Source of the DNA: Eledone cirrhosa
Taxonomy: Eukaryota
DNA: 64,000 bases
Reading direction: 5' to 3'
Assembly (NCBI GenBank): GCA_964016885.1
Contig: OZ024740.1
Span: 130,696,001 to 130,760,000, forward strand
Part shown: in pieces, positions 13,952-51,403 of the stretch
Numbering within the stretch: position 1 is the stretch's first letter
How the letters are laid out: each line of letters begins with the position of its first letter
Notes under the pieces: generated by a model
Databases searched by the model: none
What the model was told of the DNA's origin: nothing
The model's input: the letters and a program-made list of their open reading frames with translations, nothing else
Made by a program: the position numbers and the translations under genes

Positions 13952-16900
13952 AAAAGGAATTCCAACTTTTTCTGATTTACTCGTTTTATTTACAATCCTT
14001 TAAAATTATAATGATATTAGAATGAAATAGTATCTTAGAATATTAAATGTTAAGTGTTAATTGAACAATTACTTCCATGCTTTAGCAATCATCTGGGTCA
14101 TATTCTGTGGTGACAGGCAAGTTTGCAAGTTTCAACTGTAATGAGATAGGTAAATGTTGTGCCTTATATAGTGTGAAAAGTCACTACAGAATGCTAAGTT
14201 TTGCAAACTGTATTTCGACCAATCGGTGTGTTGTTTCCCTGGATTACTAAACCTGATTGCTTTAGGCGACACGGTTGGTTGAGTATGTCTAACGACTTCT
14301 ATTTGAGCCTATCCAAAGCATCAATTGTTTTTATGTATTTTTAGAAATGATGAAAATGGCATTTTCTACGGTTTTTATAAGAAGTCTTCAGTAATCATCA
14401 CCATCAACATCAATTTTATTATTATTATTGTTGTTGTTGTTGTTAGTGGTGGTAGTCGACATGGCCGTAGGTGTAGTCATGGTGGGAGTAATACCCCTAA
14501 GCATTATTATTGTTCATTTAGCTTGGGTTGGAATTTATCAATAAAATTCTTTCCTTTAATTTTTCTCTTGATTTCACTTGGGCTGCGTAATTTGTAGAAT
14601 GGAAATATTATAAATATTTTCTGACCATATGTTGCTAGATGGTTACTCAGGGGTATTTGACGGATATTTGGGTCTCTGATTTGCTGTCAGTGCACCCGTG
14701 CATGTTCCGACAGTGCATTTCCAGTTTGACCGACATATAATTCTTCACAATTTGGGCACTTAATGCAGTAAATTAGATTTCTGCTTTTGCAGTTCATATT
14801 TGCATTTGGGAATATTTTTCCAGTTTTTGTGTTCATATATTGACCGGTGTGTATGGATTGACATGTGCCACATCGACTATCATTGCATTTAAATACAGTG
14901 AATGATTGGTCTTTGTTGTTAATGTCAAACTTTGCTTTTGTTAGTAATTGCTTCACATTTTTCGGCTGTCTTTTACTTAGAGCCAAAGATCGGTCTGTGA
15001 TTAAGCCTTTTAATTCATTACATTGAGCAATGATCGGTAGGTTTTCTTTGGCAGTTTTGAAGATATTCTGGTGATATGGGTTGTGTGTCATTATAAATGG
15101 TATGACCAGTTCTTGGTTTCTTCTTCCTTGGGTTGTGCTAAGTTGTTGTATAGGTATTTTTATAGCCGGCTGCATTCCATTTTCTATACGTAGAGATGGG
15201 TATTTTTGTTTGAGCAAAAATTCACGCAGTTCTGTTAAGCGTTTGTTCCTGGTATCCGTATATTCTACAATGGTACAAATTATTCTGGCTAGGCAGTATG
15301 GGATGTTGCGTTTTGTATGAGTGGATGGCACGACTTAAGATTCAGATATTGATGGGTGGCTGTGTGTTTATAATATATATCTGCGGCAATGGTGGTGTCG
15401 TTTTTGATTACCATTATATCTAGGAATGGTAATTTGGTACTACTCATCTCTTTTGTGAATTTGAGAGATGGGTGTAGGTTATTCAGGTGGATATTGAACT
15501 CATCCAGTGTATCTAGAGATTCTGTCCAGATGATGAAAGAGTCATCAAGGTATCTCCTCCAAGATTTTTCAATGTACTTTCTAAAGTCAGTACTATATTT
15601 TTCCTCTATTTCTGGGTAGAGTTGTTGTTCTAAGTATCCCATTACAGAGTTCGCGTAAACGGAAACAAACTTCGTTCCCATCGCTGTACCTCTAATTTGG
15701 ATGTAATTCTTTCCATTGAAGAAGAAAGTGTTGTTTTCCAGAATACGTTTGACTGCGTCTAATATAAATGGCGCTGTGAATCTGGTGGGAATCACTTCTC
15801 TATGTTTTGTCCACCTAGTATTTAACCGCCTTTATTCCTAAATCATGTGTAATCTTGGTTTAAAGGCTTATCCCATCAAAACAAAGTAGAAGTGAACTCG
15901 TTTCCGTGGTTTTGAGAAGATGAGATAAGAAGTCGCTGCCATCCCTGATGAAACTGGTTATGTGAATACATATTGGTTTCAAAATAATGTCAACAAAATT
16001 GCTTTAGAGGGTGGGTAGAGCATATTGGACCAGCAATAATAGGTCTTTTGAGTGTAGTAATTTAATGTACTCACTTTTTTGTTCTTCTACTGCTAGTTGG
16101 ATTTCTTATGACTTATGAACTTTCGGTAGGCCATACAGGTTGTTGGGTTTTGGCTCAAAATTGGTGGTGTAGCCTCTTTCCTTATTCGTAAGGGAGTTGT
16201 AGTATTCTGAAGCTAGGTTGTTCATCTTCTTCATGATGTTGTGGTCTATATTTGATGGTATTTCCTGATAGAATGTTGTGTATTTCAGTTGTTCCTCAAC
16301 CAAATCTTTGTAGTATTCAGCATCCATTATAACAACTGCACCCCCTTTATCTGCTTGTTAATTATTATTGTTTTATCATTTTGTATATATTTAAGTGCAG
16401 ACATTTCTGATTTGTTAATGTTTGGCCTAACATGAGTATTACGTCTAAGAGGAAAATTAAACAGGATGTCAATGTATTGGTCGAGATAGAAATTTCTTCC
16501 TTTTGGCGGTGTGAAATTTGATTCATTCTTTACTAGTGATTTATCACTCTCATTACTTTTATCAGCGAAGGATTCCACAAGTCGTAATTTTCGACATAAT
16601 TCTTGCGTATCCTCCTTCAATTATTGGTAGTTGACTGTTGGAGTCAGTGTGAATTTCAGTCATTTTGACAGAATTTGCATTTCATCATTGTCAAGATCTC
16701 TTTTGGATGAATTAATTATTTTAGGATCTACGTGTACAGTTGTTTTGGGTATGTTTCCTCCTGTAGTTTTTCTTTGTCCTGACGTTAAAAAATGGATTTT
16801 TCTCTGTTAAGAATCTATATTCCTGTTGGTGTTTGCTTGATGAAGTTTTGGTCGTGATATTATATTTGGTTTCGTTATGTTTTTTGTCCTATTTTTGGTA

Positions 16901-18015
16901 TTATGTATATTATTTTTCCATTTCTTGTTATTATTATTTTTAACAATCTGGAAAAATGACCTAGGTTTGCTTTCAGATTTAGATCGTTTTTTCGCCCAGT
17001 TTCTTGTGGTTAATCTAAGTTGAGATCTTGAGAGTGATCTGGTTATTCTATGGTTTTTCACCGTTCCGTGTGGGTAGTCTGTGTTGAGATCTTGAGAATG
17101 ATCTCCTGGTTTTTCTACTTCTCATGGTCTGGAATATCTATCTTGTTTGTGCTTTTTGTTCATGTTGTGTGCGTTAGGATGTTTTTGTAGAAAAAGCGAA
17201 CAGTTCTTACGGTAGCTCTTATTTGATTCAAGGTAAGGTGAGTGTTTGTGTTGCCACGTGTTCTGGCATATGTTGTGTTGGCGAGATTGTCTACCTTTAA
17301 TGCTTTTTCTCAGAGTTCCAGAGTCTTTACCGTAATTTGCAGCATATTCGTCGACAAATAATTGTTTCTGCTGCCATATTCTTGATTTGCTTTCTTCTTT
17401 TGAGATATCTCTGATTCATAGTTCTCCTAGGTTTTCAGCTATGTTACCAGCCGTTAGGTTTTACATTTCGGTTTCAATTTGGTCATCGACAGCTTCATAT
17501 TTGGGTTTGTAGCGGGATAGTTTACATTGAGTAATGGAGAGTCGGTCCTGAATGTTGTTAATGTAAGTTACCATCGGAGTTTTGTTTCTTCTTCTGGTTC
17601 TCCTGCAATTTCTGTAATTATGTATTTACTCGGTAGTATTGGTGCCGTTAGAGACAGCCATTTCGAATGTGTTTCGACATATCCTTTGCATTTGTATGCT
17701 TTACAGAAGTTTTGTTTTCTAATGTTAAGAAATGTTTTCCATGTCTTCCACATTTATTTTCTTATTCGATGTGTTTTGTTTTCCAAATTTGTTTCGTTTA
17801 GTTCTGACATTCAAGGTGGTTGTGGTAGGCTTTCTCTTGTATCTTTGATAACTGTTGGTATAATTTCAACTAAATTTTTAATTTCAGAGTTTATATGTTC
17901 AGTTATAAGTTTTCCGTCTGTAGATCATAATTTCGATGATATCTCCCTTAGAATTATTTCTGATTCTATTGATTTCATTTGTTGCTTTCCAGACATGTTG
18001 GCATATACACAATAG
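13952..18015 (-). mobile_element. Neptune-like Penelope-like element, near full length, decayed
   Basis: LYGLPKVHKS, RGTAMGTK, WRRYLDD and LPFLDI (RT); CNDSRCGTC linker; CKSRNLIYCIKCPNCEELYVGQTG (GIY-YIG). An additional upstream coding remnant lies at about 16800-17995. (AT)n at both ends. Confidence 0.9.
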
Positions 18016-18109
18016 GAATATATATATATATATATATATATATATATATATATATATATGTATAAATATACACGGGTGTGTATGATTGTGTATATAATAT
18101 TATATTATT

Positions 18110-50352: not shown

Positions 50353-51345
50353 CATCCCTTGGTCTGAGTGCTCTACCACACCTTCCAGTGTTCCACCACT
50401 ATATATATATATCTACATATATATATATATATATACACATATATATATATATATATACATACATACATACATATATATATATATATATATATATATATAT
50501 ATATATATATATATATATATATATATATATATATATATATATATATATATATATATATATATATATATATATATATATATATATATATATATATGTATAT
50601 ATATATATATATTTATGTATATATATATATATATATATATATATATATATATATATATATATATATATATATATATATATATATATATATATATATCTGC
50701 TCGTCAAAATTCGCCGGTTCTTATGTTCGCAATGAATTATTGACTTTACGTTGCATCACCATTCGTGTCTGTTTACATGTCTTTCTCTTTCTCCACCCAA
50801 CTTTTGTTATCCCAATAACTTATTTTAGTTATTGTATCGCCCTAGCTGGAGGTATATTGTCTGTAATGCGAATAAATACCTATAGTGGCTAGTAGGCAAC
50901 TGATGACTGATATTCCTAACTTCTATTTCTAATTCTTCATTTATTATACTTAAATGCAACAACACAGCTCGCCATGTTTGACTCATATATATATATTCAA
51001 CATAGAAATGTGTGGCTCTAACGCGGGTTGAATCGTTTTTAACCACAGTAATTAAGGTACTCAATGGATAGCAGAGTATAAATACGTAATATAGAAACAC
51101 CATCTACAGGACTAGAACAATTTCATACGATGGAAATCATCAGGAAAGTTTTCAGGGATTCCCTGATGATTTCCTTAGAATAATGATTTCCTTTAATAAT
51201 CATCACTTAAGGGCGGTTAAGACTTAATAATCATCACTTGAGGGTGGTTCACCGGGCTAGTAGCTGCTAAATGATCGGTCGCCCTCATGTCTCTGACTTT
51301 CAGAACCATGGATTTTGTCTATTATATTCCTTTGTTATATTTCGA

Positions 51346-51403
51346 ATATCTGATGATGTCACCAGATTCATACTGAACCCGGTCATTGAAATGATCATAG
51401 TAT
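51346..51403 (+). ncRNA. Hammerhead ribozyme, decayed stem II
   Basis: AUAU-CUGAUGA-...UUCA-UAC-UGAA...-GAA-AUGAUCAU-A-GUAU; palindromic stem III AUGAUCAU. Confidence 0.55.

Follow-up and report, generated by a model that had tools for sequence, protein, structure and literature searches.

A 64,000-bp stretch of the Eledone cirrhosa genome (OZ024740.1, positions 130,696,001-130,760,000, from an assembly of 3.0 Gb), hereafter called the window and used for the coordinates below, was found to carry hammerhead motifs and Penelope-like elements (PLEs), many of them as inverted, two-armed inserts lying in AT microsatellites. It is probable that they belong to a genome-wide population of Neptune- and Hydra-type PLEs and hammerhead repeats, inserted by a PLE enzyme that cuts the two strands of an AT tract and uses each cut to prime at a different site of the RNA. 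This is PLE biology of a largely known architecture, here at unusual density, and it is refined by two new details: the near-absolute pairing of two kinds of 3' end within an insert, and the extension of that pairing to non-coding ribozyme arrays.

Hammerhead motifs in the window and in the genome

A strict descriptor of type I hammerheads recovered 14 motifs in the window, all within 13952-51403, compared with a mean of 0.28 and a maximum of 3 in 100 block-wise dinucleotide shuffles, and a relaxed descriptor gave 17, compared with 0.53 in 15 shuffles, the three gained being judged credible (Table 1). These motifs have the conserved core, three helices and either C3-G8 or U3-A8, with helices that vary among families and pairing that is kept. 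With five decayed copies recognised by homology to family members, the total for 13952-51403 came to about 22 hammerheads in ten families (denoted by letters), bearing out the initial annotation of this DNA, which had counted about 18 motifs from roughly ten families. A relaxed match at 26283 (minus strand) was discounted, its core being non-canonical and without family support; candidate cores at 15945, 32044, 44876 and 51350 failed both scans, and an eleventh family at 28.7-29.1 kb has a hammerhead core recognised by eye only. An Rfam search of the window returned no hammerhead family among 78 matches with E values of up to 1.

The genome was sampled with 40 evenly spaced 10-kb tiles from 13 contigs (400 kb in total), which contained 43 hammerheads, compared with 0.7 in shuffles. 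Provided that the tiles are typical, the load extrapolates to about 3 x 10^5 hammerheads per genome. Hammerhead density in the window was about twice the tile mean (14 per 64 kb vs 43 per 400 kb), and perfect (AT)6+ tracts made up 5.7% of 13952-51403 and 5.4% of the tiles. The window is ordinary for this genome, and the hammerhead elements form a genome-wide landscape with no single locus. Beyond the families described here, the fetched loci hold a dozen or more hammerhead classes; one of these is of the U3-A8 kind and has a long helix III, and in several of them helix II bears very long inserts.

Pairing of proximal and distal ends

Two fixed 3' ends, proximal and distal, were found per family, with a tail lying between them (A, 37 nt; B, about 75 nt; C, 64 nt; D, about 95 nt; E, about 60 nt; F, 66 nt). 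In five families, 59 of 65 two-armed inserts had one proximal and one distal end (A, 11/11; B, 11/11, one with a partial tail; C, 13/16; D, 8/9; F, 16/18); the remaining six had one unclassified end, and no insert among the 65 used one site twice. For these counts, loci displaying the same insert were merged by hand, and the figure for A comprises 10 two-armed inserts out of 12 fetched plus the window copy. Loci L213/L214 and L107/L108 have flanks in common and may represent single events. A further two D and two F inserts, longer and recorded as separate loci, agree with the pairing and were left out of the count.

Within 13952-51403, eight head-to-head inserts were found, at least six having been noted in the initial annotation, and their outer ends enter (AT)n, in places via (TC)n or (GA)n. 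The unselected tiles held 102 inverted repeats, of which 39 had (AT)4+ by both outer ends, where 3.6% would be expected; 32 of these AT-flanked repeats were flush at one end and carried a tail of 57-98 nt at the other, and three of the 32 have spacers above 2 kb and may be chance pairings. The arms of AT-flanked tile inserts total 16.8 kb of the 400 kb. Where a local community had been proposed, these 32 tailed inserts and the 43 hammerheads of the same tiles place the elements genome-wide instead. Neighbouring copies of family C, among 100 matches listed, were head to head in 22 cases, tail to tail in one and direct in two.

Palindromes could also be fold-back artefacts of long reads or of assembly, and some young arms are indeed 99-100% alike. 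However, the arms in the window differ by 2-26%, their ends are family-specific and their outer flanks distinct, and the sole suspect is a 99% tail-to-tail mirror at 19302-19716, which makes an artefact extremely unlikely as the general explanation.

An inverted arm might also be generated by self-priming, if the first copy folds back or an antisense RNA primes itself, as has been hypothesised for rotifer PLEs to account for junction palindromes (PMC3846280). A fold-back copy should nest within the first cDNA, whereas the tail-bearing arm of family A was shorter in seven of 11 inserts and longer in four. For C, the arm reaching further 5' was divided 6 to 4, with 6 of the 16 inserts level; level junctions are in favour of fold-back, but they fall within a 5' hotspot, 30-48 nt from the ribozyme on its upstream side, in which single-armed copies begin as well. 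Variants common to both arms of A arrays (see below) fit fold-back equally, and the E arm in the window that consists of the tail alone fits it poorly. Fold-back was therefore considered an improbable source of the arms.

Coding Penelope-like families

By their sequences, five of the ten families (G, C, D, F and H) are the 3' ends of coding, endonuclease-bearing (EN+) PLEs of two clades, as defined by the linkers and the DKT motif described in PMC8557442. G, C and H appear to be Neptune-type from a CX2-5CxxC linker ahead of GIY-YIG, a linker also found in Nematis, and D and F are probably Hydra-type from a CxCX5C linker, judged by motif alone. The marks of Hydra were CxCX5C in both D and F (L095, L098), DKT in place of DKG in F (L157), and CxxC by the conserved E in D; a Poseidon-type label for D and F was dropped because the linker points to Hydra. 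The closest named relative of a PLE protein from the E. cirrhosa genome was from Octopus bimaculoides (74% identity over 55% of the query). In these PLE families the 3' untranslated regions (UTRs) are 1-1.4 kb long, and hammerheads in pseudo-long terminal repeats (pLTRs) are combined with a tandem or inverted architecture, partial tandems being found in G and C and two-armed, one-tailed inserts in C, D and F.

Genome copy numbers were obtained with exact motif patterns and are lower bounds, B and E having many diverged copies; reversed patterns gave 0 matches in the whole genome for each of families A, B, C, D, E, F and H. The G element in the window has direct pLTRs (13952-14144, with a decayed hammerhead, and 18060-18301, with an intact one), a reading frame riddled with stops and frameshifts and a 3' end within (AT)45, and a two-armed relative is present in tile L192. 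Family C (10,852 copies) is represented by an insert with a U3-A8 hammerhead in each arm (19719 and 23165) and a tail of about 62 nt on the right arm only. Its 331-bp UTR unit is expanded to 5.5 + 3.4 copies, and since the same unit is present in 1-3 copies in the family C 3' UTR at other loci, the satellite that the initial annotation saw in a fold-back is a part of this UTR. Partial tandem C is found in L154. Upstream of a C 3' end and between inverted C ends, L153:2716-5025 (on the contig of the window, near 36.49 Mb) contains an uninterrupted, 5'-truncated frame of 770 codons, putatively Neptune-type, whose full-length homologues have RVT_1 and GIY-YIG. The tail-to-tail copy at 19302-19402 was identical to the adjoining C arm at 99/101 positions and to the far arm at 95/105. 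Of 30 C arms (L061-L090), about 14 start within a narrow interval 30-48 nt ahead of the hammerhead core, a possible sign of either the RNA's natural 5' end or a point of strong arrest; the majority of C copies at these loci are pLTR-only stubs.

Family D (2,924 copies) has the same endonuclease upstream in L215, L217 and L221, and the endonuclease is the only domain recovered for this family. Family F (3,230 copies) forms an insert in the window with a hammerhead in each arm and a tail of about 66 nt on the right only. For H (2,428 copies), a putative Neptune-type endonuclease was found upstream in one of 30 loci (L236). The H loci (L231-L260) show a single 3' end, often adjoined by (CA)n or (TACA)n, and the family can serve as a built-in control for a model with two sites. 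Another Hydra-like fragment, older and 74% alike to 28421-28677, lies at 57680-58480.

Non-coding tandem retrozymes

Families A, B and E are, by their structure, non-LTR retrozymes, built of tandem units that code for no protein and each hold a type I hammerhead; no PLE protein match was found inside the units or in register with them. The A insert in the window (3.1 + 2.5 monomers) contains five minimal hammerheads and a 37-nt tail on the right only, and the genome has 4,177 exact copies of the motif. In the B insert (22 exact pattern copies) stem III is 6-8 bp long and a tail of about 75 nt is again confined to the right side. The E insert (36 exact copies) has a 58-nt tail as its entire left arm and one monomer as its right arm. 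The (AT)n beside the E ribozyme is internal to the repeat unit, so its flank counts (30/30) were not used as evidence of a target. Single RNA folds around the tails of A, B, C and E gave no evident common fold.

Locus-private variants were carried by both arms in each of the three two-armed A arrays having them (19/19, 10/11 and 4/4 monomers), and in one single-armed array the private variant was in 13/13 monomers. The junctions of A lie at variable points within the monomer and do not cluster at the start site, and at most of them a few bases either overlap or serve as filler; in L126, 272 bp of foreign DNA is present at the junction. Variant A monomers recur every seven (L124/L125) and four (L126) monomers, suggesting block duplication or multimeric templates.

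A further possibility starts from the local tandem amplification put forward in bioRxiv 10.64898/2026.07.22.740005: a monomer would insert and the array would grow from it, with inversions arising afterwards in the DNA, at breaks of AT cruciforms. In one A array a variant block of two monomers reappears seven monomers further on, as local amplification would have it, and tail-to-tail mirrors centred on (AT)n (19302-19716, L221, L226/L227) are in line with later inversion. Local amplification, however, leaves unexplained the proximal and distal ends of each insert, the same rule in coding PLEs, and the multimers flanking variable-point junctions, and this course of events is very unlikely.

Flanking microsatellites

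In the tiles, (AT)6+ lay within 300 nt downstream of 30 of 32 terminal hammerheads, compared with 26% of random positions; the 32 are the 43 motifs less seven of family E, with its internal AT tract, and four internal to A arrays. The initial annotation had set itself a test in advance, enrichment of inversion and of (AT)n flanks over background, and both were found far in excess of it, in 39/102 inverted repeats and in 30/32 hammerheads, respectively. At loci of C, D, F and H, (AT)n was within 300 nt in 105/120 and (TAA)n in 2/120. A control repeat resembling a short interspersed element (SINE) had an (AT)n flank in 3/30 loci; it had an inverted copy within 1.5 kb in 11/30, none abutting by eye, and is a weak control for inversion because the family is very abundant. 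The Dong-like long interspersed element (LINE; 7,225 exact copies) joined (TAA)n at its 3' end in 25/25 loci, with (AT)n present in one of them and an inverted copy in none, and the Tx1-like LINE ended at (ATT)n in 10/10 loci, the tract being either target or tail. The partition proposed at the outset, (AT)n for PLEs and (TAA)n for Dong- and Tx1-like elements, is real and largely known already, since Dong at TAA microsatellites has been published (review PMC3812793), as have, in the text available of PMC8557442, the (TA)n target of Hydra elements and the microsatellite bias of Neptune.

These last reports argue against a further possibility, that the elements themselves seed long (AT)n by entering at short TA runs, with growth of the tract during or after insertion. 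Elements are moreover often stacked in one tract (26551-26579). In favour of seeding, some young A inserts have only 3-5 outer AT units (L128, L131), several proximal sites are short AT runs, and E and the G element contain internal AT tracts. Seeding is compatible with priming on both strands of an AT tract, and we regard it as possible, though rather unlikely.

Proposed mechanism of insertion

In the mechanism that we favour, a PLE enzyme would cut both strands of an AT tract and each nick would prime reverse transcription. Two start sites of the RNA would each be used once per insert, giving one flush and one tailed arm, and the two cDNAs would halt at variable points and then be joined head to head via their 3' ends. 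Support comes from the fixed, family-specific ends, the head-to-head arms, the variable 5' junctions with mostly a few bases of overlap or filler, and the (AT)n flanks. By analogy, an anole PLE was reported to nick and extend both strands in vitro and to have two RNA start sites bounding a tail, with a predicted dimer (PMC11167929). As the locus-private variants of A are in both arms, both arms would derive from a single RNA or a single source locus; a circular template may explain the shared variants simply, and a transcript of a homogeneous array may do so equally. Retrozymes A, B and E, as multimeric or circular RNA, would be mobilised in trans by a PLE protein. Hammerhead cleavage is predicted to process tandem transcripts; as the ribozymes are set back from the 3' ends by about 70-300 nt, their cleavage would not define where insertions end, and insertion by the anole PLE is described as not needing it (PMC11167929).

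The one-site-per-arm rule is structural evidence for the use of PLE enzymes by ribozyme repeats. Of the single PLE-type mechanism that the initial annotation had proposed for unrelated ribozyme RNAs, the insertion signature common to coding and non-coding families was retained; the five coding families are not ribozyme cargo, and as 3' ends of PLEs of two putative clades they point to one kind of mechanism with several enzymes.

Several observations weigh against the favoured mechanism. 1) In family H, 0/30 loci were two-armed and 29/30 ended at one site, so the pairing rule is not universal, and the palindromes that the initial annotation took to be systematic are absent from the loci of this family. 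2) Many copies are single-armed (B, 10/21; C, 5/21), counts that would miss any arm shorter than about 50 nt in B or about 22 nt in C. 3) The level junctions in 6/16 C inserts are those expected from fold-back. 4) In the 1.5 Mb of DNA fetched (0.05% of the genome), no autonomous PLE was found to have sequence in common with A, B or E, and it is therefore the insertion signature that argues for their mobilisation in trans. 5) In vitro, start sites of the anole enzyme were alike on both strands in the data available from PMC11167929. 6) Exact-pattern searches favour young, identical copies, and five of nine lists span only part of the contig of the window.

A more far-reaching version, in which a PLE dimer on one RNA has its subunits obligatorily at different start sites and retrozyme circles are copied repeatedly, leaving about 2 x 10^5 hairpins with about 4% of the genome in their arms and a large reservoir of double-stranded RNA (dsRNA) for editing and small-RNA pathways, is put forward tentatively, as somewhat doubtful. 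The extrapolated numbers of hammerheads and of two-armed inserts (2 x 10^5) could matter for a putative dsRNA load. The one-site-per-arm rule is a sharp prediction for the existing in vitro PLE system, and the intact-looking L153 frame, together with very young templates, makes it testable. In the text available of PMC8557442, the origin of tandem and inverted PLE inserts is stated as an open question; movement of animal retrozymes is treated as proposed, not demonstrated, in the accessible parts of PMC7229834 and bioRxiv 10.64898/2026.07.22.740005.

Other elements of the window

The remaining features are included in Table 1. Families I, J and K were placed in neither the coding nor the retrozyme group. 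Family K matched L164, whose motif is intact, at 74% over 391 nt with the flanking AT tract counted. The LINE proteins yielded only RVT_1 and zf-RVT in Pfam, and their Dong/R4 and Tx1 labels are our presumption from restriction-like and AP-endonuclease-like motifs recognised by eye. The two LINEs are often found tail to tail with a single TAA tract between them, and they cluster in the same strand orientation (2537-8567; L261-L295). At 53500-56830, decayed open frames whose motifs look like those of a Helitron Rep/helicase are ended by an (AT)n tract; three fragments of these frames gave no Pfam match. Palindromes of a second kind, with (AT)n at the centre and the copies tail to tail, were noticed at 19302-19716 and in L221, L226/L227, L130 and L160; they may stem from fold-back repair at AT cruciforms or be an assembly artefact.

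Table 1. Positions of features in the window (clade and retrozyme labels are putative)
Feature	Position	Strand or arms	Details or basis
Dong/R4-like LINE fragment in (TAA)n, comparison element	15..1445	-	second copy 8536-10331
Tx1-like LINE, comparison element	2647..8516	+	between (TTC)n(TTA)n and (ATT)n
Two-armed insert just outside 13952-51403	13568-13860		inverted-repeat scan
Family G, broken Neptune-type PLE, partial tandem	13952..18301	-	reverse transcriptase (RT) motif, CX4CxxC linker, GIY-YIG
Family K 3' end, decayed hammerhead 18911, long stem III	18901..19233	+	running into (AT)n
Tail-to-tail copy of adjoining C 3' end	19302..19402	+	mirrored over (AT)n 19403-19614
Family C two-armed insert, Neptune-type 3' UTR/pLTR	about 19611..23336	both arms	junction about 21804
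Family D single tailed arm, decayed hammerhead 23527	23409..23724	+	family homology
Family H Neptune-type 3' end, hammerhead 26428	26300..26546, start approximate	+	
Family D 5'-truncated Hydra-type PLE	26590..28676	-	GIY-YIG remnant, CxCX5C linker, hammerhead 26675, proximal end
Family J short decayed two-armed insert between (AT)n tracts	28693..28876		third copy 29078-29149
Old two-armed insert, arms 81% alike	about 32600..34640		Neptune-type endonuclease remnant about 33520-33900; no intact hammerhead
SINE-like repeat, sometimes tandem, used as control	35354-35531, 38391-38712		50,779 exact pattern copies in genome
Family F short arm, decayed hammerhead 36328	36290..36449, start approximate	+	ends in (CT)n(AT)n
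Family B 473-bp tandem retrozyme, two-armed	36531..37974	both arms	three full type I hammerheads
Family E 460-500-bp tandem retrozyme	38776..39305	both arms	hammerhead 39017
Short two-armed insert, arms 98% alike	39326..39573		40-nt right tail; no hammerhead in arms
Family A 310-bp tandem retrozyme	46418..48150	head to head	junction 47378/47379
Family F two-armed Hydra-type PLE	48168..50399	both arms	RT and endonuclease remnants, junction about 49530
Family I decayed, probable two-armed (ninth) insert	50997..51200		cores 51143(-), 51163(+); homology to two-armed copy in L182
Strict hammerheads	18252, 19719, 26675, 36758, 37231, 46587, 46886, 47196	-	strict type I descriptor
Strict hammerheads	23165, 26428, 37669, 39017, 47645, 47955	+	strict type I descriptor
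Hammerheads gained by relaxed descriptor	18911, 48233, 50302	+, -, +	judged credible
Further decayed hammerheads	about 14085, 23527, 36328, 51143, 51163		homology to family members

Comparison with known systems

Among the PLE traits already in print are inverted 5'-truncated copies, a tail on one side and insertion into (TA)n (PMC8557442, PMC3846280), and the EN+ PLEs of the Neptune and Hydra types resemble the elements described here in GIY-YIG, linkers, partial tandems, an inverted copy, one tail and a pLTR hammerhead. They differ in that the tails given in the available text of these sources are 30-40 nt, compared with 62-95 nt here, and the families of the window add a counted, near-absolute pairing, 3' UTRs of 1-1.4 kb, and a family (H) without inversions. 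PAc, the anole Poseidon element, shares two start sites bounding the tail, extension of both strands and AT-rich targets; the part of PMC11167929 available gives no start-site difference between the strands, whereas the genomic inserts use each site once. The minimal PLE hammerheads of PMC4209133 are similar in their short palindromic helix III, the extra base after A9 and U3-A8, and include opposite-strand pairs 100-700 bp apart; in contrast, helix III of family B is full (6-8 bp), and the load extrapolated here is about 3 x 10^5 per genome. For Kibi and Koshi, the review of Dong targeting lists TC and TTC, not TAA, in its available text (PMC3812793), and the Tx1-like family ending at (ATT)n is unlike them. 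In the repeat annotation of Octopus vulgaris, as far as its text was available, Penelope, Dong-R4 and Tx1 are recently active and hammerheads go unmentioned.

Animal non-LTR retrozymes (PMC7229834; bioRxiv 10.64898/2026.07.22.740005) are like A, B and E in having non-coding tandem monomers with a type I hammerhead each, and have been proposed to be non-autonomous PLE derivatives (bioRxiv 10.64898/2026.07.22.740005). In the text available, the word "inverted" occurs 0 times in PMC7229834 and only within a reference title in the preprint, and a literature search covering few subscription papers found neither two-armed retrozyme arrays with a PLE tail nor a count of the pairing rule. The arrays of the window differ from animal retrozymes in being head to head and two-armed in (AT)n with a PLE tail, and are known from DNA alone. 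In L1 twin priming, two target strands prime on the RNA and a head-to-head inversion is joined by microhomology. The parts of such an L1 insertion are non-overlapping, whereas the arms described here overlap, start from neighbouring fixed sites and form long hairpins.

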